DNA of 64,000 bases from a virus (IMGVR_UViG_3300028833_003520); one strand, 5' to 3'. Positions 1-20,745 are shown, numbered from the stretch's first letter. Notes: generated by a model not told the origin, from the sequence alone. Program-made: numbers and translations.

Positions 1-2
1 AG

Positions 3-1405: not shown

Positions 1406-1434
1406 TTGACTTTCTCCATATATGGTGTTATATT
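1406..1434 (+). promoter_or_regulatory. Sigma-A promoter with CCATATATGG palindrome (copy 1)
   Basis: TTGACT-17bp-TATATT, TG extended -10, palindrome at 1416-1425. Confidence 0.85.
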
Positions 1435-1484
1435 GACTTTAGTTAATATAGAGCAATACTGTTTGCTTGAAAGGAGATACAGTA

Positions 1485-2501
1485 ATGGCAAATTATCCTG
1501 ATGGTATGTCCAGAGAAGAGTATGAGAAGGCTATGGCTGAAATAATGGCAGAACAAGGCGATACTGCTCCTACTCAGGACGAGATAGATGGTATGGCAGA
1601 GCAACATCACGTCGATTCGATAATGCGTGCTCCTGCAGATTTCGATACAACAAACGATAAAGAGAATTTTGAGCGACTCATTTATGATGTCGGTGTTCAT
1701 TATGATAGTATCAAGTTTGGTGAGTTCGAGAGATGGAATTCAAACGAAACTCAAGACTCTGTAAACGAAGTTCTTGCAAATCGTCTTGTTAATTTCTCTA
1801 AATCTTGGGACCTTTATGGTCACAGAGATGCTTATGATACAGACGAAGAAGCATTTGAGGATATGCGTAAATCCGTTGAGGATTTAGACCAGTTAAAGAA
1901 TATTCACGAGAACCTCTGTGAAGATTTCGAGAATGCTTTTGATACTCCGTCGAAGTGGGTAGATATGATTAAGAGGTCAGATGACCTTTATAATAAACAA
2001 TATGGCGAGATGCCGAAGGAGACAACTATGGTGAATAATGATTACCCTTTAGATAAAAACGGTCAGTTTACTTTCGACTTTACGAAGGAAGTAGCAGAGA
2101 AGTCTGCACCCGAACCGCAGAAAAGTCTTGATGGCAAGACTGCACATAAGATTACTGAAGCGGAAGCAAGGGAGCGTATTGCCCAAGGAGAGTTTTCAAC
2201 TGATGTTGAGCCTTTTATGAGCGACGAAGAGAAGAGCAATGCACTTCTCAGGGAGCAGGAAGAGGCAGAAGACCGTGCTTGGGAAAGACAGCAGGAAGAA
2301 CAGATGAAGAAGGGTAATCAGGATGCTACTGTTAAGCCCACGAACGATTTTAAGCCGTTCAAACCGAGGAGACTTCCTAACGGTGTCACTCAGTACAATG
2401 GTTTCCAAGAGAATGAGAAGGGTGAACTTGTTGATGACGGATTCAGTTTCGAAGAGTATGACAAGGAACCCGAAGACGAGAACGGCGGTCTTGGTGAGTA
2501 A
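1485..2501 (+). CDS. Acidic hypothetical protein with RRLP...LGE C-terminal tail
   Basis: AAGGAG RBS before ATG 1485; ends KPRRLPNG...GGLGE. Confidence 0.85.
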   Translation: MANYPDGMSREEYEKAMAEIMAEQGDTAPTQDEIDGMAEQHHVDSIMRAPADFDTTNDKENFERLIYDVGVHYDSIKFGEFERWNSNETQDSVNEVLANRLVNFSKSWDLYGHRDAYDTDEEAFEDMRKSVEDLDQLKNIHENLCEDFENAFDTPSKWVDMIKRSDDLYNKQYGEMPKETTMVNNDYPLDKNGQFTFDFTKEVAEKSAPEPQKSLDGKTAHKITEAEARERIAQGEFSTDVEPFMSDEEKSNALLREQEEAEDRAWERQQEEQMKKGNQDATVKPTNDFKPFKPRRLPNGVTQYNGFQENEKGELVDDGFSFEEYDKEPEDENGGLGE

Positions 2502-2531
2502 TTAGTAAATAACGGAAGAGGGACAATAGTT

Positions 2532-4790
2532 ATGGCAGAAACTATTTTTCACGATAATCAGAAACAAGGTGCAAGTGTTCTTGGAACTGTTAAGAACGGT
2601 TACAAGCATAAGTTAACTGCTGAACAGCAGCAAGCACTTGCCGAGATGGTTAAGAAGAAGTCTGACTTACAGATGGATTATATTGATTTTCCTGCAAAAC
2701 ACGCTAAATGGGCAAGTTATGCAGATACACAGGCACAGGTTGATAAGCAGAATCGTATGTATTATGTGGCTTTGCTTGGTATCTGTGCAGTTCCTTTAAG
2801 GCACGGTGTAGATGCTCATTCGATTGCTACTTGTCTTGGTATGTATGCAGGTATTTGTATGGTTAGCCCTGGATTCAGAAAGAACATCAAGGGTATCGTT
2901 GGAGAAGTAATGCTTCCGTATTACGACCAGATACACGATATGTTCCCGAATTCTAAGTTTGCAAAACTGGTTGACAAGGTATTACCCGACAAGAATCAGT
3001 TGCTTATCGAAAAGAATTATGGAAGACTTCCGTTAACACCTGAAACTGCGGCTATGCAGAAGTTAGGGTGGATAGAGAAGGCTTACAAAGATATGCGTGA
3101 GCCTGGTGCCGATGAGGAAACTGTTATGCGTCAGTATAACGATGCTTGCAGAGCGTTAGATGACCTCTGTGAGCGTGATGGTGTTTCCAAAGAGGAAATG
3201 TCACAGAAAATGCAAGCATTTATGATGATGCGTATTCAGGAAAACCCTCAGAATGAGAGGTTTTATGCTGAATTAGATAATGGTTCTGTTACTTTGAGTA
3301 CACAGGACGTTGTTGAGGAAAACCCTGATGGTTTTGTTAGTGTTACTCGTCGTGCTATGCCGACAGAAGTTGATGGTAAGCGTGCTTATTGTTTCTATAA
3401 AGGCAAGAATACTTCTTATGATGGTGATTTTTCACCGAGAAGACCTTCTGCGGCAGAATCTCATAGCCAGAAGATGGGTGAGATTTGTCAGGACTATTGC
3501 CGTACAGTTAAGGATTACAGGGACTTGGGATATGAGTTGCAGTTAAACAATATTCAGTTCAGATTTAGAGATAATGTTGAGTTCTCGAAGTTCTGTGATG
3601 ATTTGGAGTCAGGTATTGGCGAGAACGAAGATTTTTATCGGAATAAATTTGGTATGTCCAAAGACGATTACTTGGCTGGATGCTATGACCTTGTATGTAA
3701 TGATATTACAAGTGCATCAATGGCAAGTTGGATTTTGCAGAAAGATAAGCAGTTGTCTGACCTTGTATCAAGCGAGAAATTAGATGCTTACGATAAGATG
3801 AATGTAAGTACAGAAATTCAGAAGAATTATCAGGGTATGGATATGCTTGTTAGCAAAATCAGAGAGCACGAAGCAAATAAGGCACAACTTGGCATATATG
3901 GTGCATATGCTACTCCGCTTATAGCGTCTGATGATGAGAAGAGAATATTCAATTTCGAAGAAGATACTTCTCTTAACGACGAAGAGCGTCTTATGATGCG
4001 TAATAAGGCTAATAGACAGTATCTCAAGGCTTATTCAGACGCAGTTACGAAGAGATGGCAGTACACGGCTGAGGGTGAGTATGGTAATCTTATTCACTTT
4101 GATTTTGCAACATCTGCAACTAAAGAAGAGCCGACGGCTTCTGTTCAGTTTAGTGGCAGAAACTTCTCTGATGAGAATGATGATGTATCGCCTGATTTGA
4201 ATGTTACACCTATAGATACAGCAAGCGGTGAGAAAGTTGTTCCGAAGTTTACTGAAGAAACATCTATCGAGTTTAATGATAGAGTGCTTGGTCATTTCAC
4301 TTATAGTCCGAAGGAATTTGAGTTGAAGAGCGACAAGCAAGGTCAGTATCTTTACTATATTGGTAGAGCAACTGAAGGCAGAAACATCGAGATACCGCAA
4401 GGTATTAAGTCTTGCCGTTGTATGTTTAAGGATAGACAAGATGTTGTTTCTGCACCTGAAATACCGAATGGTGTTGAGGATTGTAGTGAGATGTTTAGCC
4501 GTTCAGGAATTGAGACACCTCCGAAGATTCCTGGTACTGTTCATAATTGTCAGTATATGTTCTCTGAATGTACGAGCCTTACAAAAGTTCCTGCCGTTCC
4601 TTCATCTGTTACACAGACGAACGGTATGTTTAGTGCTTGTAAAACAAGTATTCAGAAACAGGGTGAAGATGTTATTAGGTATAGAAATAAGGAGTATGAT
4701 ATAGTTCTCGATTTGATGACTCATCAGAAGAACAATCAGAACGATATGGCAGACGATTTTGCGTCAATGTACGGTAGTTTTATCAATTAA
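2532..4790 (+). CDS. Hypothetical protein with C-terminal BspA/DUF285-like leucine-rich repeats
   Basis: 752 aa; four repeats of the form [IV]PxxVxxCxxMFxxC near the C-terminus. Confidence 0.7.
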   Translation: MAETIFHDNQKQGASVLGTVKNGYKHKLTAEQQQALAEMVKKKSDLQMDYIDFPAKHAKWASYADTQAQVDKQNRMYYVALLGICAVPLRHGVDAHSIATCLGMYAGICMVSPGFRKNIKGIVGEVMLPYYDQIHDMFPNSKFAKLVDKVLPDKNQLLIEKNYGRLPLTPETAAMQKLGWIEKAYKDMREPGADEETVMRQYNDACRALDDLCERDGVSKEEMSQKMQAFMMMRIQENPQNERFYAELDNGSVTLSTQDVVEENPDGFVSVTRRAMPTEVDGKRAYCFYKGKNTSYDGDFSPRRPSAAESHSQKMGEICQDYCRTVKDYRDLGYELQLNNIQFRFRDNVEFSKFCDDLESGIGENEDFYRNKFGMSKDDYLAGCYDLVCNDITSASMASWILQKDKQLSDLVSSEKLDAYDKMNVSTEIQKNYQGMDMLVSKIREHEANKAQLGIYGAYATPLIASDDEKRIFNFEEDTSLNDEERLMMRNKANRQYLKAYSDAVTKRWQYTAEGEYGNLIHFDFATSATKEEPTASVQFSGRNFSDENDDVSPDLNVTPIDTASGEKVVPKFTEETSIEFNDRVLGHFTYSPKEFELKSDKQGQYLYYIGRATEGRNIEIPQGIKSCRCMFKDRQDVVSAPEIPNGVEDCSEMFSRSGIETPPKIPGTVHNCQYMFSECTSLTKVPAVPSSVTQTNGMFSACKTSIQKQGEDVIRYRNKEYDIVLDLMTHQKNNQNDMADDFASMYGSFIN

Positions 4791-4803
4791 GGATGTGATG
4801 TAA

Positions 4804-5352
4804 ATGTCGAAGAAGGATTTAAGGCGAAAGTTACCACAGACTACGGGGGATGGAACTGACAATTCTAATTGGCAGGACGATTCACACGAGCAGATTTCGC
4901 TTGCAATGGGTAGTGAAGAATATAAGGAGTTCTTACACGATAATCAAATGCAGTCAAAGACTGATTTCGACGAGGTACGTCGTTTTGAGATTGCTAAAAC
5001 TCAAAAAGACAGAGTGCGTGATAAGCACAATAAGGCTACAGACCACGACGAACACGAGCGTGAGCGTACATATAACGAGGCACACGCCAAAGTTATGCGT
5101 GAAGTCGGTACTGATAAGCAGAAGAAGATGAAGACAAAGTTGAATCAGCGTCAAGCGTATGCTCATATCAAGAAGGAAGACCAGGATAGTAAAGCCGTCT
5201 CGACTGCAAGGAAAGAGGCTGAAAAGACGGAAAGTCCTGAAGATGATAAGCAAGTAAGACGCAATATGCCGAAGACTTTGGAAACACTTAAATACAATGA
5301 CGGAGTGACTGAAGATGATTATCTTCCTAAGGCACTCAGGAAATATACATAA
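4804..5352 (+). CDS. Charged hypothetical protein
   Basis: 182 aa ORF in operon; contains RRKLP near the N-terminus and RRNMPKTL near the C-terminus. Confidence 0.8.
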   Translation: MSKKDLRRKLPQTTGDGTDNSNWQDDSHEQISLAMGSEEYKEFLHDNQMQSKTDFDEVRRFEIAKTQKDRVRDKHNKATDHDEHERERTYNEAHAKVMREVGTDKQKKMKTKLNQRQAYAHIKKEDQDSKAVSTARKEAEKTESPEDDKQVRRNMPKTLETLKYNDGVTEDDYLPKALRKYT

Positions 5353-5366
5353 AGGAGAGTCATATT

Positions 5367-7346
5367 ATGGCGACAAGAGACCAGTTGGGAACCGATGCAA
5401 TTCTTACAGATGCTCAGAAGCAGTATAACAAAGAGCATCGTATGGATAATGCGAAGAAATCGGCAAATGCTGTAAAGGAGAAGATGAACGCTATTGCAGA
5501 AAGGGAATCAGAGCGTTATAACGCTCACCCTGTACTTCATCCTATGAGAAATATGCTCATTATGAAGGGTGTTCAGTATGGTGCTTCTGCAGCGATTTCT
5601 GCGGCGGCAGTTACGGCTCCTGTTGTATATGTGAATCATCGAATGAACAAGAACTTCAAACAGGAGTTCAATGGAATGGGTATGATGAAGTATGCAAAGG
5701 AATATAAGAAAGGCTATAAGAAGGCTGTTAAGGCTGGAAATATGGCTTTTGAAACCGATAAGGACTTTGGACTTACCGAAATGAAATTCGGTGAATATAC
5801 AGGTATTAAGTTACAGAAGGATTCGGAGAACTGGCGTACAACTGTCCTTTCTTGGTTTGACGCAGATGATGAGGCTCAGCGTCTTAATGACCGTGATAAC
5901 GATATAAGACGGCACGAGGCACATATGGCATTCGAGCGTGAAAAAGCCGAAGAAGAGATGCGTAAGCGTAAAGAGGAAATGCGTAAGATGGCAATTCCTA
6001 TGATGGCTTCTGAATTCTTTAGAAATCCTATGATTATTAGGCATTTGGCAGGTCTTAATTCAACTGCGGCACCTAATATGGCAGGATATGAGAATGATTT
6101 CTTCAATAATGCCGCACCGTTTACTAAGGCAGAAGCAATGCCACAGGAAAATACAGCGAAGCCACAGTCTGCTCCTGCAATGAAGGATGTTACTCCTAAT
6201 CAAGCAGATACGGCAGAGCCGATTGTTTATGGTAACGCTCCTGAAGCCAAGCCTCTGCTTGGTGCAGGTAATCAAGTAGTATCTCCGTTACCTGAATTCT
6301 GTGATGATTATCAGGTCGTGCAGATGTCTCCGCAGGTTTTGGAAGCATATACTTCTATGCAAGGCGAGTTTGCTCAAAACTCACCGCTTTATGCTCAGGC
6401 TGCATTGAGACAGCGTACAGACTGGTACGGTCTTCCCGATGGCACATTGGTTGAAGACCTTCAGACATTACAGAGTGCAATGTATTTGCAGTATATGATG
6501 GCAAATATGGCAGACGGTTCTATCACTACTATGAATGATATGGAGTGGTATCAGAACCGTTTCACAGACCATTGGACTGAGTTTGAGCAGACAGCGTTAA
6601 TGCCGAAGTATGGTGATAGGATTAAGGCATTCTATGAATCCAAGAATAAGACACCTTCAAAGGCAGAGCAGATTATGATTGATTCAAACGAGCACAAGTA
6701 TCAGGCTATTGAGCGTGGTACAGAGCCGAAGATTGCTATTGAATCTGCTCGTAAAGAGTCTTCAGTAGGTTTAGGCAGATATGCCGCAAAGACTATAGCA
6801 GATGTATTTGCAGAAGCGGCAGCAAGACATCAGTTCGAAGAGAAGGGAACTATTCCTGTTGCTATCGAACAGAAAGGCGAGGCTATCGCATTGCCTGACA
6901 ATTCTATGAAAGAGAATGATATGCCAGTAGTCGCTGTAAATAGTCTTCCTGAAAAGACGAATGATATGCCAGTAGTCGCTGTAAATAGTCTTCCTGAGAA
7001 GACGAATGAGATGCCTGTAGTGTCTGTGAATGCTCTTCCTGATAAGTCAGGTGGTATGCCTGTAGTTATCAGACCGAACGAAGCGACGGTTGAAGATAAG
7101 GATAAATCGGTAGTGGCTGAAGCAGGTGAGGATGAAGTCAAGGATGATAAGATTGGAACAACGAATGTTGGTTCAGAGAAGAAGAAAGAACATCGTAAAG
7201 TTCCTGCAGGCATAGCGGCTATAGCAAGTGAAGCAAGGAACTTGGATAAGGCATCTAACTATGTTGATGCTGTTCGTAACAGAGATGAAATGAAAGATGT
7301 TCCTGCAGTAAATGAAGCAATAAAAGATAGTGGAATGCAAATGTAA
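5367..7346 (+). CDS. Hypothetical protein with internal 15-aa repeats
   Basis: AAAGGAG RBS; 659 aa. Confidence 0.85.
   Translation: MATRDQLGTDAILTDAQKQYNKEHRMDNAKKSANAVKEKMNAIAERESERYNAHPVLHPMRNMLIMKGVQYGASAAISAAAVTAPVVYVNHRMNKNFKQEFNGMGMMKYAKEYKKGYKKAVKAGNMAFETDKDFGLTEMKFGEYTGIKLQKDSENWRTTVLSWFDADDEAQRLNDRDNDIRRHEAHMAFEREKAEEEMRKRKEEMRKMAIPMMASEFFRNPMIIRHLAGLNSTAAPNMAGYENDFFNNAAPFTKAEAMPQENTAKPQSAPAMKDVTPNQADTAEPIVYGNAPEAKPLLGAGNQVVSPLPEFCDDYQVVQMSPQVLEAYTSMQGEFAQNSPLYAQAALRQRTDWYGLPDGTLVEDLQTLQSAMYLQYMMANMADGSITTMNDMEWYQNRFTDHWTEFEQTALMPKYGDRIKAFYESKNKTPSKAEQIMIDSNEHKYQAIERGTEPKIAIESARKESSVGLGRYAAKTIADVFAEAAARHQFEEKGTIPVAIEQKGEAIALPDNSMKENDMPVVAVNSLPEKTNDMPVVAVNSLPEKTNEMPVVSVNALPDKSGGMPVVIRPNEATVEDKDKSVVAEAGEDEVKDDKIGTTNVGSEKKKEHRKVPAGIAAIASEARNLDKASNYVDAVRNRDEMKDVPAVNEAIKDSGMQM
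6915..7067 (+). repeat. 45-bp in-frame tandem repeat (~3.4 copies, NDMPVVAVNSLPEKT)
   Basis: Units start at 6915, 6960, 7005 and 7050, decaying toward the 3' end. Confidence 0.9.
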
Positions 7347-7367
7347 CCTCGTTGGTCAGTTTTTACA

Positions 7368-7411
7368 AAATAAAAATCCGTATTCTGTATAGCAGGTACG
7401 GATTTTTATTT
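7368..7411 (+). terminator. Intrinsic terminator
   Basis: AAATAAAAATCCGTA...TACGGATTTTTATTT inverted repeat after the stop codon. Confidence 0.75.
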
Positions 7412-7416
7412 GGAGT

Positions 7417-7445
7417 TTGACTTTCATTTTATATTAGTATATACT
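7417..7445 (+). promoter_or_regulatory. Sigma-A promoter
   Basis: TTGACT-17bp-TATACT, no palindrome in the spacer. Confidence 0.6.
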
Positions 7446-7545
7446 TGTTTATGAGCAGATTTTGCATTTATCTAATCATATCCACCACACGATTATCCAG
7501 GGGTTTTACAGGGGAATATGTAGAACAAAGGAGAAGACAAAGGAT

Positions 7546-7875
7546 ATGGCAAACAAGAAGAAGGTTAACCCTAAAAAGCCTTCCACAAAGGTAACGAACG
7601 GGAAAGTAACTCGTAAGATGCTCCTCAAAGAAATGGCTCGTCGAAGTGGAGCAGACAGCGAGACGACAATGGCGGTTTTCACATCAATGATAGATGTCAT
7701 TGTTGAAAATGTACGGGACGGTTCGACTGTAAGTATTACAGGATTAGGAAATTTCTATCTTCAGAAGCACAAGGGACATCCTGTGCAGTTTGAGTCCAGT
7801 ACAAACCACGTTGAGGACTATAATGTACTTAAGTTCTCGGCTTCGGATGCTTTGAATAAGAGATTAAGAGAGTAA
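7546..7875 (+). CDS. HU/IHF-family DNA-binding protein (divergent, basic N-terminal extension)
   Basis: GSTVSITGLGNF and LKFSASDAL match the HU fold; start reassigned to ATG 7546 after a purine-rich RBS. Confidence 0.8.
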   Translation: MANKKKVNPKKPSTKVTNGKVTRKMLLKEMARRSGADSETTMAVFTSMIDVIVENVRDGSTVSITGLGNFYLQKHKGHPVQFESSTNHVEDYNVLKFSASDALNKRLRE

Positions 7876-7901
7876 GATTTGCTCGGTATTACATAACACA
7901 A

Positions 7902-7939
7902 AATAGGCATTGTCGGTGTTTGATAATGCCTATTGTTTT
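7902..7939 (+). terminator. Terminator hairpin with TGTCGGTGTTTGAT cap (copy A)
   Basis: AATAGGCAT-cap-ATGCCTATT then GTTTT. Confidence 0.7.
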
Positions 7940-7962
7940 GCTTTCATAAAATAGTGAAAATG

Positions 7963-8003
7963 CTCATAAATGAGTTGATTTACGGTATTTTGTATGTTAT
8001 AAT
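7963..8003 (+). promoter_or_regulatory. Sigma-A promoter with adjacent CTCAT-AA-ATGAG dyad
   Basis: TTGATT(7975)-17bp-TATAAT with TG; dyad at 7963-7974. Confidence 0.6.
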
Positions 8004-8041
8004 TGCATTCGTAAAGATGTTGTTTTAGAAAGGAAATTTGT

Positions 8042-8785
8042 ATGAAAAAGACAAATCAGCCAATTTCAGAAGATGCTAAGTCATCTTCTATCTCTAAATC
8101 TCTTGTTGCTTTAATTGTAATTGCCGTAGCCGTTGTAGGTGTTGGTGTTGGTTTATTTATTAAGATTCAGAATGACCAGAATAAAGCCATTGCTCTCAAT
8201 GAAGCAGGTTTTCCTGTAAATGGTGAGACAATTCCTTCTGAATATCTTGATGCTGCTCACGGAATCGTTGAGAGTAGAGTAACAACACCGCCTCTTCGTG
8301 ATTATTCACTTACTATCCCCAGTGATGGTGATATGGAATTCGAGTTCAAAGATTCTTATGCTTACGGAACCATTGATTATATCGGTTCAAGCGATGTTTA
8401 TGAGCACGTAATCGGTACAGGTAATACATATATCCACTATAAGATGGTTATGACGTTAAGTGACGTTTATGCTTTGAATATAGGCACTGCATCATTTGTT
8501 TTTAATGATACATCAAGGAGTGGAGATGTTAAAATCAGAGTAAACGACGGGGATTGGGTCAATCCTTCGGAGTGTGCTGATTTACGAAGTGGTGATGTTG
8601 TTGAAGTTCTGATTTATACGGATAAGATTGATGATGTTTTCACTATTTATTGGGCATCTCCTGATGGTACACAGACAGCAACAATCGTACCTGAGACTGT
8701 TGCAGGACCTTCTAATGAAACAGCAGAGCCTAATGAAACTTCAACTACTGAAACCGCCGAATCGACGGAAGGAGATAAAGGTTAA
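8042..8785 (+). CDS. Membrane-anchored hypothetical protein
   Basis: Single N-terminal TM helix (LVALIVIAVAVVGVGVGLFI); T/E-rich tail. Confidence 0.8.
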   Translation: MKKTNQPISEDAKSSSISKSLVALIVIAVAVVGVGVGLFIKIQNDQNKAIALNEAGFPVNGETIPSEYLDAAHGIVESRVTTPPLRDYSLTIPSDGDMEFEFKDSYAYGTIDYIGSSDVYEHVIGTGNTYIHYKMVMTLSDVYALNIGTASFVFNDTSRSGDVKIRVNDGDWVNPSECADLRSGDVVEVLIYTDKIDDVFTIYWASPDGTQTATIVPETVAGPSNETAEPNETSTTETAESTEGDKG

Positions 8786-9433: not shown

Positions 9434-9459
9434 AATAAATAAACAAAGGAGAAATCAAA

Positions 9460-12508: not shown

Positions 12509-12547
12509 GATTTTAAGTTAAAAATCTATGTTTGAAGGAGATAGATT

Positions 12548-14140
12548 ATGAAGTATTCTTGCAATAATACGACTTTCAACGGTGTTCGTGTAAACGATAC
12601 TATTGATGAGTTTAGACGAGATAAATATACGAATGAAGATTATAAAGGGTACTTTGCTCGTCTTGTAGCCGTAGGCGAGAGACCGTATGATGTTCAAAAG
12701 ATTGGTGCTTCCAATGAGCGTTGTGATGCGGCGATTGCTATATTCTCAGAGCACGAGCCTTACAGGGCTATTTATGCTGTACCGCTTCCTGAAAAGTATG
12801 GTGAGTATGAGCGTGAAGATGGCACAAAAACTGCAAAGTTTAATAAGCCGTTATCAGAGTTCTGGGAGAAAGCAAGGAACTATAATATCGAAATCAATGA
12901 GAATAATCCGTTCATTGTTGATGCCAAGTTTAAGATAAAAGTTGGTAATACCAATGTCACTTATAATGGTCCTGTTGCTGTTACATCAAGATGGAACATC
13001 AATGATGATTTCAAGGGTTGTGTTGATGAGAAGACAGGCAAGACAAATTTAGATAATGTTAATGATGTTATGTATAAACATCAGAATAGTCTGATTTGCA
13101 CTTGTCTTGAAGACAATGGTATGTTCAAAAAGGGCAATATCATTGTGGCTGAACCTGGTGGCATCTATGATGTCAGTGTTAATAAGGTTTATACAGGCAA
13201 CAACAAAGGCACAAAGGAATATCTTGACTTTGTGGGTGATGTTGAAGCCAATCGTTATGAGTCTATCTCGAAGATGAGAGCCGATGCAAAACAGGCAAGA
13301 CACGAAGCCTATGAAGCAGAGGTATTGAGACTTAAGAGATATCAACGTGAGGCTGGTCTTGAAGGTCGTACAGCGTTTGAGAACAACGATACACCGTATG
13401 CAAAGATTACTTTGCGTGATATGAGAGACGATATGGTATCGCCTTATTACAAAGGTTATGTCGCTCTTGTAGATAAGCCTGGTTATCGTGACGGAGAATA
13501 TGACGAATATTATCGTCTTAAGAACTTAAAGACTGATTTGGCAGACCATAGATTAACTATGGGTGGTCGTGATTATGTCAACGGTGATTGGATGTCAGTT
13601 TACGAAGATAATCTCTTTGTAGATGAAGTCATCACAAAAGACCATCCTGAATATGCAAAATGTCAGGCTTTGGAAAAGCAGTTTGACGATATGCACGCTA
13701 ACGCACCTTATGAAATTACGGGTGTTATTTACGGTATTGATGCAACTTATGCTGATTATGATAAGGATAAGGTATATCCTCATTATGAACAGATTGAGGA
13801 GAAGACTTGGACTCCTAAAGATGTGCATTCTCTTGAGGATGCAGAGAAGTGGATTCTTAAGAATCACCCTGATTATTATATCGGATTTAGTGCATCGCAA
13901 AAGTGCCCAAGCGGTAATTTCCGTTGTGGAGCCGTACCTGGCTTCTATGGAAGAGAGGTAAGCGAAACTTATGAATCTCGAAGGAAATTTGCACAAGCAG
14001 AGGCAGATAAGTTAGGTGTTACTCTTGGACCTGTAGAACACGACAAAGACGGTAAGTTAATCGCACCTTCTTCAAGAAGAAGACTTCCTGATGTTCCGAA
14101 TGCAGGAGTTGATAATGATAAACAATATGGAGAGGAGTAA
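12548..14140 (+). CDS. Hypothetical protein with RRLPDVP...YGEE tail
   Basis: AAGGAG RBS; 530 aa. Confidence 0.85.
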   Translation: MKYSCNNTTFNGVRVNDTIDEFRRDKYTNEDYKGYFARLVAVGERPYDVQKIGASNERCDAAIAIFSEHEPYRAIYAVPLPEKYGEYEREDGTKTAKFNKPLSEFWEKARNYNIEINENNPFIVDAKFKIKVGNTNVTYNGPVAVTSRWNINDDFKGCVDEKTGKTNLDNVNDVMYKHQNSLICTCLEDNGMFKKGNIIVAEPGGIYDVSVNKVYTGNNKGTKEYLDFVGDVEANRYESISKMRADAKQARHEAYEAEVLRLKRYQREAGLEGRTAFENNDTPYAKITLRDMRDDMVSPYYKGYVALVDKPGYRDGEYDEYYRLKNLKTDLADHRLTMGGRDYVNGDWMSVYEDNLFVDEVITKDHPEYAKCQALEKQFDDMHANAPYEITGVIYGIDATYADYDKDKVYPHYEQIEEKTWTPKDVHSLEDAEKWILKNHPDYYIGFSASQKCPSGNFRCGAVPGFYGREVSETYESRRKFAQAEADKLGVTLGPVEHDKDGKLIAPSSRRRLPDVPNAGVDNDKQYGEE

Positions 14141-14145
14141 ATAAA

Positions 14146-14505
14146 ATGGCTAACGAGAATGTTGCATACACCATATTCAAAGATAGTCACGGACGTGAAA
14201 AGTTTCGTGGTCTTTGGGATAACAACGGTGTTCCAACGCCTGTTGAAGTTAGACTTGATTATGGTAAGCATAAATGGACTGATAAAGAGATTATGTCTCT
14301 TCTGAAAGGCGAGGAAGTCCAATTAGACTCGTTTGAAACGAAGGGTGGTAATCAGATGCCTATTTCGGGCAAACTCGGTCCTCAGTCTTATATGGGTCGC
14401 CCATATATAGGCTTTGTAAGGACAGATGCAGAAGCCACAAAACGAAGACTCCCTGAAGTTGGTGGAGTAGAACCTACACAGCCTCAGGCAGAAATGGAGG
14501 GATAA
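14146..14505 (+). CDS. Small protein resembling a topoisomerase C-terminal repeat, with RRLP tail
   Basis: WTDKEIMSLLKGEEV...FETKGGN..ISGKL resembles Toprim_Crpt repeats; ends KRRLPEV...EMEG. Confidence 0.55.
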   Translation: MANENVAYTIFKDSHGREKFRGLWDNNGVPTPVEVRLDYGKHKWTDKEIMSLLKGEEVQLDSFETKGGNQMPISGKLGPQSYMGRPYIGFVRTDAEATKRRLPEVGGVEPTQPQAEMEG

Positions 14506-14509
14506 GCCT

Positions 14510-15124
14510 ATGTCTTCTGAATCTTTACGTCCAGATAATCCACAAAAGTCAATGCCATTTAGATTGGTTGATTTACAGAGACCAAGAAACGGTATTGATT
14601 TAACTCGCAGAAGTGTTATTTACGAAGGTCAGGAATATTTCGTAAGAATTGGTGCATATTCAAAAGGACAGATGGCGTTGCGTTTTGAAGCGAAGAATGC
14701 GGAAGCATTCAAGCCAGGTGTTGTCCAGAGTTCTGTTAAGCCTATCAGGGTTACTTGGAACTTGGGTAACTATATAGGAAGAGAACGTCCTATGCCGAAG
14801 AATAGCAGTTTTTTGAATACGCCCGAATTTCCTGGCATTGAGGATTTTGTTATGAGTACGGGAGTAGCAAAACCTGTACTTCGTAATGGAGAACAAGTTG
14901 TACGCTGTCATAGAGCCAACAATGAGTGGTATCCTGCTTATGAATTTGACGAGAAGAAGTTGAGAATATTAGACCCCGAAGGGTATGAGCGTTATTCTCA
15001 ATCTTATGATAGGCAGGCAGCCGAGGAAGAGAAGATGAAGACAGCAAGGCTGTCAAGACGACACGGTTCTTGTCCTCAGTTGGAAACATATGACGAGGTT
15101 GTCTTGGACGACGCACAGTTCTAA
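14510..15124 (+). CDS. DUF4313-like protein
   Basis: YSKGQMAL, VTWNL, FLNTPEFPGIEDFV..GVAKP, YPAYEF pattern. Confidence 0.55.
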   Translation: MSSESLRPDNPQKSMPFRLVDLQRPRNGIDLTRRSVIYEGQEYFVRIGAYSKGQMALRFEAKNAEAFKPGVVQSSVKPIRVTWNLGNYIGRERPMPKNSSFLNTPEFPGIEDFVMSTGVAKPVLRNGEQVVRCHRANNEWYPAYEFDEKKLRILDPEGYERYSQSYDRQAAEEEKMKTARLSRRHGSCPQLETYDEVVLDDAQF

Positions 15125-15142
15125 AAGCCTTTATTTTATTAG

Positions 15143-15194
15143 TTGTCAAATACTCATTTATATGGTAAAATCTCCTTATAAATGAGTATTTTTT
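15143..15194 (+). promoter_or_regulatory. Promoter overlapped by a long inverted repeat (also terminator-like)
   Basis: TTGTCA-17bp-TAAAAT; AATACTCATTTATA...TATAAATGAGTATT then T-tract. Confidence 0.55.
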
Positions 15195-15209
15195 ATTGGA
15201 GTTAGTGAG

Positions 15210-15353
15210 ATGATTGTAGCACTTATATTAACGATTGTTGGATTGTTTTCTGCATCGTATTTCGTGACAGATTGTTTTTGGAAGCGTGATTTCAAAAAGA
15301 TGGAACGAGAAGCAACACCAGAGTGTAAGTGTAAGGTTACTCCAATAAGATAA
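15210..15353 (+). CDS. Small membrane peptide (47 aa, not in ORF track)
   Basis: GGAG upstream; MIVALILTIVGLFSASYFV...; fills the gap before the next gene. Confidence 0.6.
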   Translation: MIVALILTIVGLFSASYFVTDCFWKRDFKKMEREATPECKCKVTPIR

Positions 15354-15364
15354 GGAGTTTAGAG

Positions 15365-16465
15365 ATGAATATAAAGTGCCCACATTGTAATAAGCAGTTC
15401 TCGTTGGATTCGTCTGATGCGTCTGAGATTATATCTCAGGTAAGAACGAGCGAATTTGAGAGCGAAGTTAACAGACGAGTAAATAGCGAAGTTAAGGTCG
15501 CTGTTATGGAGAGTAAGCAAGACTCTATGTCGAAGATTTCTGACCTTCAGATTGCCTTAAAGCAGGCTGAAAGTGAGAAAGAATTGGCAGTTATTAAAGC
15601 CGAAACCGCTTTGCGTGCGGATTATGAAGCCAAGTTAAGGGATAAGCAGACCGAACTCGATTACTATAAGGATTTCAAGACGAAGCAGTCAACCAAAATG
15701 GTTGGCGAGTCTTTGGAGCGTTATTGTTCTGACGAGTTCAACAAAGTGCGTATGATGGCGTTCCCGAACGCTTACTTTGAGAAGGATAACGAAGTGTCAA
15801 AAACTGGTTCAAAGGGCGACTTTGTTTACAGAGAATTTGACGAGGAAGGCGTAGAACTTCTGTCTATTATGTTCGAAATGAAGAACGAAATGGACACAAC
15901 TGAGAAGAAGCACAAGAATGAGGATTTTTTCAAAGAACTTGATAAAGATAGAAAGGAGAAGAATTGCGAATACGCAATTTTGGTATCGCTTCTTGAAGCA
16001 GATAGTCCTTTATATAATCAAGGAATTGTGGACGTATCATATAAATATGATAAGATGTACGTAGTTCGCCCTCAATTCTTTATAGCGATTATCAGTGTTT
16101 TGAGAAACGCTGCTTTGGCATCTTTGGAGACAAAGCGAGAACTTCAGAGAGTTCGTAATCAGAATATTGATATAACGAACTTTGAGGCTGAACTGAATAA
16201 ATTCAAAGACGGGTTTGCCTACAATTATACTCAAGCATCGAAGCGTTTTAACGAGGCAATAGACGAGATAGATAAGACGATTGCTCATCTGCAGAAGGTT
16301 AAAGATGCATTGACAAATTGTGATAGACAGTTAAGGCTTGCAAACGACAAGGCTGACGGCATAACAATTAAGAGGCTTTGTAGGAATAATCCGACGATGA
16401 GTGAAAAGTTCAAGGAGTTACGAGAGAATGGAGAAACAAATACACAGGTGCCCGATTTGCCATAA
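15365..16465 (+). CDS. DUF2130 family protein
   Basis: IKCPHC, STKMVGESLE, KGDF, IMFEMKNE, CEYAILVSLLE, YVVRPQFF. Confidence 0.85.
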   Translation: MNIKCPHCNKQFSLDSSDASEIISQVRTSEFESEVNRRVNSEVKVAVMESKQDSMSKISDLQIALKQAESEKELAVIKAETALRADYEAKLRDKQTELDYYKDFKTKQSTKMVGESLERYCSDEFNKVRMMAFPNAYFEKDNEVSKTGSKGDFVYREFDEEGVELLSIMFEMKNEMDTTEKKHKNEDFFKELDKDRKEKNCEYAILVSLLEADSPLYNQGIVDVSYKYDKMYVVRPQFFIAIISVLRNAALASLETKRELQRVRNQNIDITNFEAELNKFKDGFAYNYTQASKRFNEAIDEIDKTIAHLQKVKDALTNCDRQLRLANDKADGITIKRLCRNNPTMSEKFKELRENGETNTQVPDLP

Positions 16466-16628
16466 CGAGAGAATGGAAGTTGGAGTATGTTATCGAAAAT
16501 ATGATGTGTTTGCGTATAACATATATTGCCCGAAATGCAATTTCACAGGTAGGTCGTATAGGATGCGATATAAAGCGATTGATAAGTGGAATGCATTGTG
16601 TAAACAATTTGAATCTGCGGCTGTATAA
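16428..16628 (+). CDS. Lar (restriction alleviation)-like Zn-ribbon protein
   Basis: CPIC...CPKC...AIDKWN pattern. Confidence 0.55.
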   Translation: MEKQIHRCPICHNERMEVGVCYRKYDVFAYNIYCPKCNFTGRSYRMRYKAIDKWNALCKQFESAAV

Positions 16629-16664
16629 CGGCGGTGGAAATATATCCTGAGGGGGATTAGGAAA

Positions 16665-16937
16665 ATGAAAAAGAGGAAGATGAAGGAAAGTACGGTGCAG
16701 TTACTTGGTGCATTATTTTTCTTTCTTTGGGGAACAATGCTGTTAATCGGCGGAATACTTGATGTGCCTATTTGTTCATATTACGGATGGGTCAATTGGC
16801 TTGTTGATAAACTGGGAGTGTCAGTGGTCTGTACGGCGTGTGCATTGTTCTGTTATGTTCTGTCAGGCGTTTGTGTTAAACAAGCGTTTGAAGAACAGAA
16901 GAACGAATTAAAAGAAGCATCGGTATCTGATACTTAA
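16665..16937 (+). CDS. Small two-TM membrane protein
   Basis: Two hydrophobic segments. Confidence 0.7.
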   Translation: MKKRKMKESTVQLLGALFFFLWGTMLLIGGILDVPICSYYGWVNWLVDKLGVSVVCTACALFCYVLSGVCVKQAFEEQKNELKEASVSDT

Positions 16938-16970
16938 TTACGACTAACCAAACTTTATACTCATCTCACG

Positions 16971-17011
16971 AAATTAGAACTGTGTCGGTGTTTGATGCAG
17001 TTCTAATTTTT
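16971..17011 (+). terminator. Terminator hairpin with TGTCGGTGTTTGAT cap (copy C)
   Basis: AAATTAGAACTG-cap-CAGTTCTAATTT-TT. Confidence 0.75.
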
Positions 17012-17013
17012 GA

Positions 17014-17042
17014 TTGACAATCTCCATATATGGCGTTATACT
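17014..17042 (+). promoter_or_regulatory. Sigma-A promoter with CCATATATGG palindrome (copy 4)
   Basis: TTGACA-17bp-TATACT; palindrome at 17024-17033. Confidence 0.88.
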
Positions 17043-17089
17043 AATTTTAAGTTGTAAAACTATGTTTTGACTTAAAAGGAGAATTTAAT

Positions 17090-17407
17090 ATGGCATTTTC
17101 ACAGTCATCATTGAATAGTCATAAAGATTTGGCAACAAGTGGTATTTCTGAAGAAGAATGGATGAAAGACGATTCTTTGGTTAAAACAAGTGATTTAACT
17201 GAGGAACAGAAGGTTCGTCTTGATAAGATAATGCAACCACCTGTATCAAGATTTAATTCACAGATACGTAAGCGTTTGCAAACTTCTCCAAGACAGGAGA
17301 GGTCAGATTTTATCATTATAAATGAGAAGCCGTCTAATAGAAGGCTGCCTAACTTACCTTCACAATTGACGAGTGATAGAGATTTAGGAGACGATTTTGA
17401 TGGATAA
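17090..17407 (+). CDS. Hypothetical protein with RRLPNLP tail
   Basis: AAGGAG RBS; 105 aa. Confidence 0.8.
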   Translation: MAFSQSSLNSHKDLATSGISEEEWMKDDSLVKTSDLTEEQKVRLDKIMQPPVSRFNSQIRKRLQTSPRQERSDFIIINEKPSNRRLPNLPSQLTSDRDLGDDFDG

Positions 17408-17410
17408 GGC

Positions 17411-17436
17411 TATGGCGTTATACTGATTTTAAGTTG
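17411..17436 (+). repeat. Truncated copy of the palindrome promoter (3' half only)
   Basis: TATGGCGTTATACTGATTTTAAGTTG: 25/26 identical to 17029-17054; its first 25 nt match 12495-12519. Confidence 0.85.
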
Positions 17437-17465
17437 GGAATCTATGAGCAAGAGAGGAAAAGTCT

Positions 17466-18266
17466 ATGACAAGTAATAACCGTCAATTAAAAGCAACACC
17501 TTCTGGTGGTGATATGAACAGCAAAGAACCTAATATGTTTACGTTCTATGTTGATAATTACGGTAGTTATCCTCAAAATAAGCCTGACAGTATCGCTCTG
17601 TATGGTAAAGAGAATATTCCGTTCTTGAAGGATAAGAGCATTGATGAAATCAAGAATGCTCATATGTACTGGGGCAGTGATGAGGCGAGAAGTAGGGAAC
17701 TTTTAGGTATGTATAACGGTGATACGATGGTACTTTTCGGTGATATTGAAAAGTTACCTACAGAGTATAAGCACGATGCCGAATTGATGACACCAAAGTA
17801 TGTTGCAGAGCGTGTACAGAAATCGAAGATGATGAATGTGTATGCTCCTGATGATTTATCGAAAAACTCTTTTTATCTTATTACTTTGGGTAGCAAGGAC
17901 GAAGATGGTGAGGTTTTCCCTGGCATTGAGAGATTTAATCCTGACTATGAGGGAGAGAGTGTTGATGATATTACAAATCATCTTTGTGAGTTCCTTTCAC
18001 AGACAGACAAGGCTTATGTAGATAATCAGAAGTGGGTTCACGAAGTTTACGAAGGAAAAGACCAAGTTTTCGGTAAGTATGTTAACGATATTAGTGATAA
18101 AACGATGAATAAAATCTATGAGGAAATCAAGGGCTATGGTAAGGCATCAGAGATACCTACCATTAAGTCACAGGTAGTAGATTTAAGAAAGAGTCAGAGG
18201 GCAAATCGTAGATTGCCTGATGTACCCGATGTGCAGAATGATAATGAAAAGCAATGTGGAGAGTGA
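17466..18266 (+). CDS. Hypothetical protein with RRLPDVP...QCGE tail
   Basis: GAGG RBS; 266 aa. Confidence 0.85.
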   Translation: MTSNNRQLKATPSGGDMNSKEPNMFTFYVDNYGSYPQNKPDSIALYGKENIPFLKDKSIDEIKNAHMYWGSDEARSRELLGMYNGDTMVLFGDIEKLPTEYKHDAELMTPKYVAERVQKSKMMNVYAPDDLSKNSFYLITLGSKDEDGEVFPGIERFNPDYEGESVDDITNHLCEFLSQTDKAYVDNQKWVHEVYEGKDQVFGKYVNDISDKTMNKIYEEIKGYGKASEIPTIKSQVVDLRKSQRANRRLPDVPDVQNDNEKQCGE

Positions 18267-18280
18267 AAGGAGATTAGCGT

Positions 18281-19510
18281 ATGCCTAATTACAAGAGAGG
18301 TCGTATGGGACCTGATAAGTATTTTGATTACTTAGTAGAGCAAGATGAACAGCGTGTTCGTAATGAGAAGGTCGATTCTATACGAGAGACTATCTTTGGA
18401 CCTGCATCATATCAGTCACAGGCAGACGAGGAAAGAACTCAGAGGCAAACAGAGTTTGCTAAACTTGTCCTTGACGGTAAGATGGACTATAGCAGAGCCA
18501 AAGCCAATTATGTTAATAAAAACACGGCTGTAGATTACGAGTGGTTAGCCACGAGAACTGATTCTCAATTGAACAAAGGATTGTTTCTTCGACAGAGATT
18601 TCAGCAGGATGCAAGCGAAGATGAATCCGCTTTGAAGAAGAATATTGAGAATATTAAGAATGAACCCTGTGTATATTTGAGTACGTGCCGTGAGTTACGT
18701 ATAGAGCCAACATCGAATCGTAGCGAAGTGCTTAAACATAAGAGCGATTATGTAGCGTCCTTTGATACGGATGAGGAAGACTTTTTGCGTAAAAAGGCGG
18801 CTGAGTTGGAGTCAAATCCTAATCAGTTGAAAGATTATCTGAGTGTGGCTGCACAGGAAGAGATAATGGATATGCGTGCCAGTGATGAGTGGGTGAAGGC
18901 AAATGGCGGCATACATTTGGATAATGCTAAAAAGTATGGCGAAGGCATTAGACATTTGGATGAGCCGATTCGTTATATGAGCAAATCGTCACAGCAGATG
19001 TTTTATCAGTCCATTATGGATTATATGAAGGAGTCTGCGTTGGGTCCTGATAAGAATCATCCGCTATTTGATAGACCACATAGTTTCACACCTGACCAAG
19101 AAGCAGAATTGCTTTGTAGGTCTAATAAGTGGTATGCGAAGGATTTTGATGCGGCGTATGATACGGCATTCCATAAAGACGGACCTTTGTTCCCGTATCA
19201 GTTTGTTAATCACAGTGGTATGAAACTTAATGAGCAGATGGTTCGTATTCCTGATGATAAGTTACCGAAGGAGCGTTCTTACTTTACAGGTAAATTTGCG
19301 TCTTTGGGATATATTAAACCGAATCCCGATACTGAGAGTGCAATGAAGAAGCAAGAAGGTAGTGCACGTAGGATGCCTGAAACTCTTGCAGATATTCAGC
19401 CGAACCCTGATAGCGTAACGAATAAGCAAGATGATAGTGCACGCAGGATGCCTAAAACTCTTGCAGATATTAAACCGAATCCGAATAACGGTATGCAGTT
19501 AGGAGAGTAA
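18281..19510 (+). CDS. Hypothetical protein with duplicated RRMP tail ending QLGE
   Basis: AAGGAG RBS; SARRMPETLAD / SARRMPKTLAD. Confidence 0.85.
   Translation: MPNYKRGRMGPDKYFDYLVEQDEQRVRNEKVDSIRETIFGPASYQSQADEERTQRQTEFAKLVLDGKMDYSRAKANYVNKNTAVDYEWLATRTDSQLNKGLFLRQRFQQDASEDESALKKNIENIKNEPCVYLSTCRELRIEPTSNRSEVLKHKSDYVASFDTDEEDFLRKKAAELESNPNQLKDYLSVAAQEEIMDMRASDEWVKANGGIHLDNAKKYGEGIRHLDEPIRYMSKSSQQMFYQSIMDYMKESALGPDKNHPLFDRPHSFTPDQEAELLCRSNKWYAKDFDAAYDTAFHKDGPLFPYQFVNHSGMKLNEQMVRIPDDKLPKERSYFTGKFASLGYIKPNPDTESAMKKQEGSARRMPETLADIQPNPDSVTNKQDDSARRMPKTLADIKPNPNNGMQLGE
19349..19483 (+). repeat. 75-bp-period direct repeat duplicating the RRMP tail
   Basis: AAGCAAGA...AGTGCACG.AGGATGCCT.AAACTCTTGCAGATATT at 19349 and 19424. 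Confidence 0.85.
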
Positions 19511-19514
19511 TGAT

Positions 19515-20189
19515 ATGGCTAATAAAAAAGCGAAGAAGAGTCTTGCCAAGACGAATACGAAGCCGTCTGTTAAGAAGTCAAATGGTGGTGAATCCAAGAC
19601 TGTAGCGAGTGAGCGAAAGGAAGAGATGAACCTCGATTTAGGTGTCTATGCTGATGGTACTCCGAAGGATGATAAGTTTGCAAAGGCAAAGCAGTTGAAG
19701 GACAAGGGTAATAAGGATGTTACTGATGGCGTTGTAAATCAAGCCAAGAATGCACCTGGACTTGCCATTGGTATTCTCACGACCGCAGGTACTTTAGGCG
19801 GTGGAGCCGTTGTTGGTGTACCGATGATAGTCGGTGCGGCACCTGGTATTATCAAAGGCAAGTATCAGGAAACGAAGGGCAAGATTGAGTTGGCTCAGAG
19901 TGGAATAGAAGCCAATAAGGTTATGAAAGATAATGATATGACGAAGGAAGAAAAGAAGGCGGCTCGTCGTGAGTTAGCCGAGTACAATAAGGATTCAGTC
20001 AAGCGTGCTATTAAGTCCAAGCCTGAGGAAGTTAAGAAGACTCTTGATGATACGAAGGATGCTTTAAGTCAGATTGCAGAGGAAACGAAGAAGTCTGATG
20101 TACACGCAAAGCGTGTAAAACAGGCTAATAGCAGATTGAGTATTCCTGAAACAAGTTCAGTAAACAAGGGTGTTGAACTTGGCGAATAA
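19515..20189 (+). CDS. Hypothetical protein with Gly-rich hydrophobic segment; ends ELGE
   Basis: GLAIGILTTAGTLGGGAVVGVPMIVGAAPG; tail SRLSIPE...ELGE. Confidence 0.8.
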   Translation: MANKKAKKSLAKTNTKPSVKKSNGGESKTVASERKEEMNLDLGVYADGTPKDDKFAKAKQLKDKGNKDVTDGVVNQAKNAPGLAIGILTTAGTLGGGAVVGVPMIVGAAPGIIKGKYQETKGKIELAQSGIEANKVMKDNDMTKEEKKAARRELAEYNKDSVKRAIKSKPEEVKKTLDDTKDALSQIAEETKKSDVHAKRVKQANSRLSIPETSSVNKGVELGE

Positions 20190-20257: not shown

Positions 20258-20265
20258 GAAAAATG

Positions 20266-20295
20266 TTGACAAAACTATGGTTTTATCTATATAAT
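20266..20295 (+). promoter_or_regulatory. Consensus sigma-A promoter of the RHH gene
   Basis: TTGACA-18bp-TATAAT; spacer contains the dyad AAAAC-TATG-GTTTT. Confidence 0.7.
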
Positions 20296-20329
20296 TGATT
20301 TCAAGAATAGGGAAAGAGAGGTGATAGAA

Positions 20330-20710
20330 ATGGCAAGACCTAAAAAGGACGGACATTCAATCAATGTATATCTTGATGAAATGCAGTATAAGAATTTGGC
20401 TGCATTTGCTACTATGTCAGGTATGACAAAGACCTCTATTCTTGAAGAGGCTTTGAAGCGTTTTCTGGCTCCTTATTGTGAGGACGAGGAAATTAAAGCC
20501 GTACCTGCATTGCTTATCAAGGGCAATTCTGAACTTGATAAGAAGATGGCAGAAAACGAGGGTAGAGAGGTTACGATTACTGAGACTCCTTGTTTTGTAT
20601 TAAGTCAGGAAACGGTCTTTAATCAGCCTTATTATCGAATTTATGAACCGTCAATATCTCAGATGATGAAGGTTCCGATAGAACATATTAGGTTTCCTTC
20701 GAAATCTTGA
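20330..20710 (+). CDS. Ribbon-helix-helix (CopG/Arc-like) DNA-binding protein with C-terminal extension
   Basis: MARPKK..HSINVYLD...L...A...GMTKTSILEEALKRFL; GAGGTG RBS. Confidence 0.75.
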   Translation: MARPKKDGHSINVYLDEMQYKNLAAFATMSGMTKTSILEEALKRFLAPYCEDEEIKAVPALLIKGNSELDKKMAENEGREVTITETPCFVLSQETVFNQPYYRIYEPSISQMMKVPIEHIRFPSKS

Positions 20711-20716
20711 TTTACA

Positions 20717-20745
20717 TTGACAATCTCCATATATGGCGTTATACT
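20717..20745 (+). promoter_or_regulatory. Sigma-A promoter with CCATATATGG palindrome (copy 5)
   Basis: TTGACA-17bp-TATACT; palindrome at 20727-20736; identical to copy 4 over 29 nt. Confidence 0.88.

Follow-up and report, generated by a model that had tools for sequence, protein, structure and literature searches.

The 64,000-nucleotide stretch of the viral sequence IMGVR_UViG_3300028833_003520 analyzed here (the window, always at its full 64 kb) contains five copies of a promoter whose spacer, between the -35 and -10 hexamers, holds one and the same 10-bp palindrome, CCATATATGG. These palindrome-bearing promoters, termed class A promoters below, head operons that encode mostly orphan proteins with a common C-terminal tail. 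The main new result is that the combination of promoter and palindrome is conserved in a distantly related element, found in the metagenome-assembled genome (MAG) JAZSES01. We consider it probable that class A promoters are host primary-sigma promoters with an embedded operator of an element-borne repressor, and that the five operons behind them constitute one regulon.

A palindrome-bearing promoter and the tails of the genes behind it

The + arm of the window (1-23331) is a series of short transcription units, whereas the - arm carries genes for replication and nucleotide metabolism (helicases, primase, NrdD, ThyX, dUTPase, a methyltransferase and a Lon-like ATPase). Ribosome-binding sites in the window are AAGGAG-like. 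The 29-mer pattern TTGAC[TA][TA]T[CA]T-CCATATATGG-[TC]G[TC]-TATA[TGC]T matches five times, always on the + strand. Copy 1 (1406-1434) combines the -35 hexamer TTGACT and a 17-bp spacer with the palindrome at 1416-1425 and the -10 hexamer TATATT. Copy 2 (11808-11836) has the palindrome at 11818-11827 and the -10 hexamer TATAGT, and in copies 3 (12480-12508), 4 (17014-17042) and 5 (20717-20745) the palindrome lies at 12490-12499, 17024-17033 and 20727-20736, each followed by TATACT. These are the only exact occurrences of the 10-mer in 64 kb (n = 5, against 0 in 100 shuffles), and none would be expected by chance for the generalized pattern of all five copies, TTGAC-N5-CCATATATGG-N3-TAnnnT. When up to three mismatches to the 29-mer were allowed, no site beyond the five appeared in the whole window; one-mismatch variants of the palindrome itself occur at 3892 and 14401, both intragenic.

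The spacer is 17 bp in 5/5 copies, and the palindrome always takes up spacer positions 5-14, which is about -25 to -16 if transcription starts ~7 nt past the -10 hexamer. In a generic promoter scan all five copies ranked among the top sigma-70-type matches of the + arm, where they match 10-11 of 12 consensus positions. In four of the five class A units the leaders (1435-1478, 11837-11880, 12509-12550 and 17043-17092) also have in common RATTT(TAAGT) at the presumed start and CTRTGTTT ~10 nt 5' of the ribosome-binding site, which may form a translational or RNA-stability element. A literature search for CCATATATGG as an operator found no description of it. Megablast of positions 1-20000 against phage and plasmid collections returned no match and thus no close relative, and the strict motif had no match in IMG/VR or in GTDB genomes.

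The C-termini of all + arm genes were compared, 15 of them in the palindrome units and 14 behind six other + arm promoters (7417, 7975, 9375, 11374, 15143 and 20266). Operon 1 (1476-7346) opens with a gene ending in RRLP...GLGE (1476-2501) and continues with an untagged gene (2532-4790), one with the variant RRNMP (4804-5352) and another untagged gene (5367-7346). Operon 2 (11878-12423) is a single tagged gene with RRTPDVP. Operon 3 (12548-15124) comprises two RRLP genes (12548-14140 and 14146-14505) and one with the variant SRRHGSCP (14510-15124), and operon 4 (17090-20189) three genes with RRLP or RRMP (17090-17407, 17466-18266 and 18281-19510) followed by one with the variant NSRLSIP...ELGE (19515-20189). 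Operon 5 (20794-23331) begins and ends with RRLP genes (20794-22140 and 23005-23331), between which lies a gene with only a terminal QQIGE (22122-23015). Canonical RR[LMT]P is thus present in 10/15 palindrome-unit genes, 19-22 residues from the end (44 in 1476-2501), and most of these proteins end in GE; the three variants bring the count to 13/15. The RR motif is missing in two or three of the 15, depending on how the gene that retains QQIGE alone is counted.

None of the genes behind the six other promoters, all of which lack the palindrome, is tagged. The difference is significant for canonical tags (10/15 versus 0/14, Fisher p = 2e-4), for tags including variants (13/15 versus 0/14, p = 2e-6) and for first genes only (5/5 versus 0/6, p = 0.002). 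In all-against-all BLASTP comparisons the tagged proteins share little beyond the tail and are not paralogues. The pairing of promoter and tail is therefore not a by-product of promoter-plus-gene duplication, and duplication of a whole cassette was ruled out as its origin. No tagged protein received a Pfam or PHROG assignment or an Atlas lead. One of them, of 530 aa, has relatives at 91% and 43% identity; a related-locus search with a tagged protein returned nothing.

An earlier sequence-only reading of this DNA had described the five-copy motif, its constant 17-bp spacer and the fixed place of the palindrome, and all three descriptions hold. It had also stated that the first gene after every copy carries an RRxP tail, which is true of all five (RR[LT]P, at -44 in 1476-2501 and at -19 to -22 in the other four), and that five named + arm promoters without the palindrome lead to untagged genes, to which the sixth at 20266 can now be added. 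The association of motif and tail that it proposed is borne out within the window at p = 2e-4. Its statement that two independent signals mark the same gene set stands as a strong association, but not as an identity, as two to five operon genes are without a canonical tail.

Conservation in a distant relative and the pattern of constraint

Looser motif scans covered 596 Gb of species genomes and IMG/VR, and JGI metagenomes were scanned separately. In the species genomes, multiple copies turned up solely on small contigs of a single MAG, JAZSES01 (G001), and not at chromosomal genes. This MAG is binned as 'Candidatus Limenecus'; it is fragmentary, and the binning of its small contigs may be wrong. 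A mismatch-tolerant scan located 11 copies in G001 and the looser scan a twelfth, giving 12 canonical copies against 0 for the control, with the consensus TTGACATTTT-CCATATATGG-ATG-TAT[AGT]AT. The pattern TCCATATATGG occurs at 19 sites in G001, against 0 for a control pattern.

The copy on contig C180 of G001 (3709-3737) sits ~50 nt past the stop codon that closes an open frame encoding at least 1012 aa. The end of this frame is 32% identical (E 6e-22) to the window frame 3-1298, a putative RNA polymerase. The arrangement is the same in both elements, with a class A copy (copy 1 in the window) directly 3' of the putative polymerase gene. Apart from this gene and one short match, the window proteins have no detectable relative on the promoter-bearing contigs of G001, and flanks and cargo genes cannot be aligned between the two. 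At least two G001 promoters have the palindrome shifted by 3 bp so that it abuts the -10 hexamer, each before a gene (TTGATT-N7-palindrome-TAAAAT and TTGCAA-N7-palindrome-TAATAT). The G001 palindrome is also present outside canonical promoters.

The palindrome is unchanged in the five window copies, the 12 canonical G001 copies and two further metagenome contigs. When 19 copies are stacked, information is confined to TTGAC, the palindrome with the T that precedes it, and positions T1, A2 and T6 of the -10 hexamer, with none in the flanks. Within the 17-bp spacer none of the ten palindrome positions varies, whereas four of the seven others do so in the window (p = 0.015) and six of seven in G001 (p = 6e-4, a value that is inflated because the G001 sites were located via the palindrome, whose invariance there is partly ascertainment). 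The distribution of mismatches in the mismatch-tolerant scan is therefore the fairer test, and there 10/10 mismatches fell outside the palindrome. The site is thus constrained independently of polymerase contacts, has been kept at 32% protein identity and recurs at many promoters (five in the window and 12-19 in G001), as in a repressor-operator regulon. Ten fixed bases amid drifting neighbors, in elements that can barely be aligned or not at all, call for a sequence-specific reader.

A factor-free explanation would treat the 29-mer as an optimized cassette spread by duplication or gene conversion, its palindrome being kept for an effect in cis, such as spacer flexibility, or by hitch-hiking. 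It is generally known that spacer sequence can affect promoter strength, and copies within each element are much alike. Nevertheless, we regard this explanation as very improbable, given that ten contiguous spacer positions are fixed and seven free in three lineages, that no structural role is obvious for the palindrome's G/C ends, and that in G001 palindromes also occur shifted and outside canonical promoters. The flanks are, moreover, wholly different, which makes recent copying unlikely.

The remaining constraint is that of a sigma-70/sigma-A promoter. The -35 element is TTGAC(A/T) in five window and 12 G001 copies, the spacer is 17 bp in all copies and the -10 element is TAnnnT; across 18 canonical copies TTGAC and -10 positions 1, 2 and 6 are invariant, while -10 positions 3-5 are free to vary. 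The rules of sigma-70 recognition are well established, and this pattern of invariant and variable positions is the one seen in primary-sigma promoters, so the host holoenzyme should use class A promoters; recognition by host sigma-A is what we infer. A consensus promoter with a 17-bp spacer requires no activator. To our knowledge, proteins that bind within the spacer compete with polymerase, with the sole exception of MerR-type regulators, which need spacers of 19-20 bp. For a promoter this near to consensus and with an optimal spacer, a repressor is the economical reading of the palindrome, and the palindromes shifted by 3 bp fit a steric repressor better than a stereospecific activator. The looser scans bear on the same point. 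They recovered mostly single-copy promoters with longer palindromes (GTCCATATATGGAC, TTCCATATATGGAA and similar) before small ArsR-, XRE- and CsoR-type regulators. These were set aside as unrelated autoregulated operators of different systems; their position in the spacers of regulator genes' promoters indicates that the spacer is a usual operator site.

It could be asked whether the palindrome is instead a positive specificity element, which recruits an activator or the element's own transcription machinery (the putative single-chain RNA polymerase, encoded by the gene that ends at 1298, or a partner factor). The motif co-occurs with the putative polymerase gene, directly 3' of it in both elements, TTGAC is stricter than is usual in host promoters, and the putative polymerase itself bears a variant of the tail. 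Despite these points we think such a role unlikely. The -35 and -10 elements fit the sigma-A consensus, the -10 varies as a sigma-70-type TAnnnT, and a consensus promoter with a 17-bp spacer would serve the host polymerase anyway; shifted copies of the palindrome exist in G001. In addition, the flap insert, to which sigma binds, is described as missing from polymerases of this kind (PMC7824862).

Conservation across two otherwise unalignable elements would be easily explained if the binder were a conserved host factor, and no conserved element-encoded regulator was found in both the window and G001. The palindrome might then be the site of a borrowed global regulator, with the regulon tied to host physiology. 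The core does resemble the NrdR box CwATATATwG. That box has the core C-W-ATATAT-W-G within a 16-bp dyad and occurs as tandem pairs ~31 bp apart at nrd genes. In the palindrome, by contrast, positions 2 and 9 always have C and G, never A/T, the sites are single, and no such box lies near the element's nrdD (58060-60078). An NrdR box was therefore rejected on sequence, site number and location. As the multi-copy form in 596 Gb is confined to the small contigs of one MAG and absent from chromosomal genes, we hold control by any host regulator to be quite unlikely.

Two JGI contigs of 5.8 kb each (L001 and L002) have the motif 37-39 nt 5' of a gene for an 809-aa PcfJ-like protein, near a ParM-like gene. 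On L001 the PcfJ-like protein (156-2585) has a zinc ribbon and is accompanied by a ParM-like actin (3809-5026), gene contents that point to a plasmid context.

The window-type RRLP tail was not demonstrable in G001, where a hidden Markov model of the window tails gave nothing significant against the proteins. By eye, the G001 homologue of the putative polymerase ends in ...AVMAKDKTIPSKAQLEAQKNREDLGE, and several genes behind G001 promoters have KTIP, KRIP or ARMP near the C-terminus. The motif [IV][AMV](A)K[FWA], 20-30 residues from the end, is present in 9/153 open reading frame tails from the promoter contigs of G001 and L001 versus 3/755 control tails, a post hoc statistic because the regular expression was picked after the data had been seen. 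Proteins with this motif are encoded at the loci L049 (G001 C180), L071 (G001 C164), L044, L051 and L053, and some of them also carry K[RT]IP. Within the limits of these post hoc statistics, it seems that the promoter heads C-terminally tagged orphan proteins in both elements, with tags that have diverged. To find this promoter before tagged orphans in an element whose polymerase homologue is only 32% identical would suggest that the coupling is ancient and selected.

Probable insulation of the operons and their possible regulator

In the scheme that we favor, each class A copy would be a strong promoter for the host polymerase with its primary sigma factor (sigma-A/sigma-70 type), and CCATATATGG the operator of an element-borne DNA-binding protein with two-fold symmetry. 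The bound protein would block access of the polymerase. With a terminator sealing each unit from its upstream neighbor, five operons (15 window genes) would depend on a single type of site. If the repressor were absent or inactivated, for example on entry into a naive cell or by an induction signal, all units would fire at once, and its accumulation would shut them off jointly. The regulon would consist almost entirely of orphan proteins with the RR[LM]P...GE tail, so transcriptional control and tag would mark the same functional set. We infer that a protein binds, in which direction it regulates, which one it is and what triggers its release. The proposal of an operator-controlled regulon co-defined with the tail is upheld as to a constrained operator-like site (0/10 versus 4/7 spacer positions varying) and its link with the tail (p = 2e-4); as to repression, regulator and trigger it stays a proposal.

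Copies 1-4 start 1-15 nt past hairpin-plus-U terminators, with z-scores of -4.8 to -7.1. The hairpin 5' of copy 1 (1355-1391, -16.5 kcal/mol, z -4.8) closes the unit of the putative RNA-polymerase gene, and those 5' of copies 2, 3 and 4 lie at 11762-11806 (-26.0 kcal/mol), 12437-12479 (-22.9 kcal/mol) and 16966-17013 (-21.3 kcal/mol). Copy 5 begins 6 nt past the stop codon of the preceding gene, which encodes a ribbon-helix-helix (RHH) protein described below, and is itself overlapped by a hairpin with a 17-bp stem followed by TTTTATT (20731-20768, -23.6 kcal/mol, z -7.6), the 5' arm of which is made of the -10 hexamer together with the palindrome's right half. This hairpin would stop transcripts arriving from the RHH gene and spare those initiated at copy 5, which begin inside it. 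The sequence-only reading had placed four copies behind a terminator; this is confirmed for copies 1-4, and the count was too low, since copy 5 has the overlapping hairpin. With a hairpin or terminator at every copy, all five units would be insulated, provided that the hairpins function as predicted.

A second promoter-overlapping terminator hairpin of this type lies at 15148-15191, where the spacer and the -10 hexamer form the 5' arm and the 3' arm falls in the transcribed leader. From their layout, such hairpins appear to be a compact design for blocking read-through without harm to transcripts initiated at the promoter. Separately, the loop GTCGGTGTTTGAT is identical in three terminator hairpins with unrelated stems (7902-7934, 11762-11806 and 16966-17013, the last two 5' of copies 2 and 4). 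The loop looks selected itself; it may bind a protein or an RNA, or act as a signal when read from the other strand.

The RHH gene (20330-20710, + strand) sits between operons 4 and 5 with its own terminator and its own promoter, a palindrome-free TTGACA-18-TATAAT that matches 12/12 consensus positions (20266-20295, promoter scan). Its 126-aa product combines an N-terminal RHH domain with a C-terminal SH3-like barrel, as judged from Pfam, a relative and an AlphaFold2 model. The match to Pfam RHH_1 (E 0.005) is below the cut-off, and a 59%-identical relative carries PF01402. The model (predicted local distance difference test, pLDDT, 79) contains the helix-helix part of the fold, then the SH3-like barrel; a fold search with it gave only weak SH3/Tudor-like matches, for the C-terminal domain. 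As a homodimer the protein scored 0.75 versus 0.00 for the best control, a mark reached by 20/30 proteins solved as same-chain pairs and by 1/23 solved as single chains. Between runs, at least 97% of contacts agree; the partner pLDDT is at least 86, and the interface spans residues 7-57 and includes a 12:12 contact, as in an RHH beta-ribbon. Since RHH dimers are common among solved structures, this result shows likeness only and may reflect memory. The protein belongs to an unnamed family of ~120 residues with a variable N-terminal RHH domain and a conserved C-terminal SH3-like barrel (NEGRE, C-VL, PYY, MKVP). A search of 1.84 billion representatives gave 135 matches to it at E <= 1e-3, and its C-terminal domain is not covered by any Pfam model. 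A related-locus search for the family in genomes and viral contigs returned nothing.

A predicted symmetric dimer is compatible with a palindromic site, and we tentatively regard the RHH-barrel protein as the best local candidate repressor, a possible but somewhat doubtful one whose link to the palindrome is positional. Alternatives are a host factor or the products of two HU-family genes in untagged units of the + arm (7462-7875 and 9460-9744), one of which has a 45-residue N-terminal extension. The window also has a second operator-like dyad, CTCATWWATGAG, at 1677-1688, 7963-7974, 9418-9429, 15175-15186 and 60378-60389; among these sites are ones at or beside the untagged-gene promoters 7975, 9375 and 15143. 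In G001 it has six exact sites (contigs C127, C235, C253, C304, C360 and C407) versus one for the control. CCATATATGG has the 8-bp core CATWWATG in common with it, which points to either a pair of related regulators or a single one that reads both classes of site.

Besides the ascertainment noted above, several observations weigh against an operator-controlled regulon with an element-borne repressor. The element carries its own putative RNA polymerase, so that element-specific recognition is possible. Searches of G001 with the RHH protein, its RHH domain and a 40-row profile did not find it, which is weak evidence because G001 is fragmentary; four Pfam RHH_1 matches there are on host-like contigs or are unrelated. 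The promoter of the RHH gene has no palindrome, unlike that of the autoregulated plasmid repressor Reg576 considered below, and RHH operators usually have two or more subsites, for which a lone 10-bp site is short. Two large genes of operon 1 (2532-4790 and 5367-7346) are tailless. Finally, function searches detected no establishment functions, such as anti-restriction, among the regulon genes.

A wider proposal is that promoter-operator and tail are halves of one conserved 'cargo regulon'. A single signal would release a burst of unrelated tagged proteins, including the element's own putative polymerase, and the tag would decide what becomes of them all: they would be exported, or packaged along with the DNA for delivery to the next cell, or else destroyed at a set time by AAA+ machinery of the element. 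We consider this rather unlikely as a whole; the window holds neither export or packaging machinery nor a tag receptor.

The best-studied plasmids (RP4, p576 and pKM101) time their establishment and transfer genes via operator-defined regulons. For the giant mobile elements carried by gut and rumen Firmicutes, almost nothing of this sort is known to us. Through one 10-bp site, ~15 orphan genes of the window become accessible together; they are expected to be co-expressed, and their common tail speaks for a common fate. Given the conservation of this site in so distant a relative, a 29-mer should suffice as a probe with which to retrieve the regulator. What the tagged proteins do, and what the adjoining putative element RNA polymerase does, would thereby become experimentally approachable.

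Two features of the window lie outside the regulon. A full-length ROOL RNA (Rfam RF03087, 198 bits, E 4e-43) is located at 23787-24458 on the - strand, precisely at the junction of the + and - arms. Two paralogous proteins of ~228 aa are encoded one per arm, at 10472-11158 (+) and 31775-32458 (-), and in both a MazF/PemK toxin domain (E 1e-18 and 4e-23) forms the N-terminal part, to which a C-terminal extension is fused.

Comparison with known systems

Dyad-symmetric sites between the -35 and -10 elements are also a feature of MerR-type promoters. Those have spacers of 19-20 bp and longer dyads, and the class was rejected on geometry for a 17-bp spacer with a 10-bp dyad. Large virulent Bacillus phages such as SPO1 offer a different parallel. 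Their host-type early promoters are shut off by an HU-like phage protein (TF1 in SPO1), and TF1 sites are long and dependent on modified bases. The window resembles these phages in its clusters of very strong host-type promoters heading short insulated units of orphan genes, and its two HU-family genes in the + arm recall HU-like modulators of transcription encoded by phages.

The closest published analogues are Reg576 and KorA with its operator OA, by function and not by family. Reg576 of the Bacillus pumilus plasmid p576 is an RHH repressor that controls four sigma-A promoters of putative establishment genes through a shared short operator, with an expression burst upon transfer and subsequent shut-off that resembles zygotic induction (Val-Calvo et al. 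2018, PMC6294495). Like p576 (PMC6294495), the present element would be a Gram-positive-type mobile element in which several sigma-A promoters carry one short operator and the controlled genes are mostly of unknown function. The two also differ. In p576 an element-encoded RHH dimer represses, whereas here an RHH dimer is a candidate; Reg576 represses its own promoter, whereas the promoter of the RHH gene is palindrome-free; and no common protein tail is described for the p576 regulon in the account drawn on here (PMC6294495). The Reg576 operator is a direct pair of TTATCCC heptamers 5' of the -35 element (some in the spacer or near the ribosome-binding site), bound by two dimers (PMC6294495), unlike the single 10-bp inverted repeat at a fixed place in the spacer found here. 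Searched against PDB sequences, the RHH protein had no match at E <= 1, with no similarity to Reg576 detected, and no ardC-like gene was found. Membership of the Reg576 family was rejected as operator, homology and autoregulation all differ, which leaves a functional resemblance.

KorA of the IncP-1 plasmids RP4/RK2 is a single dimeric repressor that acts at seven promoters through the 12-bp symmetric operator OA, GTTTAGCTAAAC (PMC2665229). Here too a short, perfectly symmetric operator would be repeated at the promoters of one element, and just as the KorA network has further operators (PMC2665229), the window has the second operator class CTCATWWATGAG. In contrast, KorA, which belongs to Gram-negative plasmids, is of the helix-turn-helix type and cooperates with KorB, and its targets are replication, partition and transfer genes rather than a tagged orphan set (PMC2665229); no homologue of KorA or KorB was detected in the window. 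As an operator-defined regulon on a mobile element, the system belongs to a type already known; it is unusual in that it coincides with a class of protein tags and is conserved in a very distant relative.

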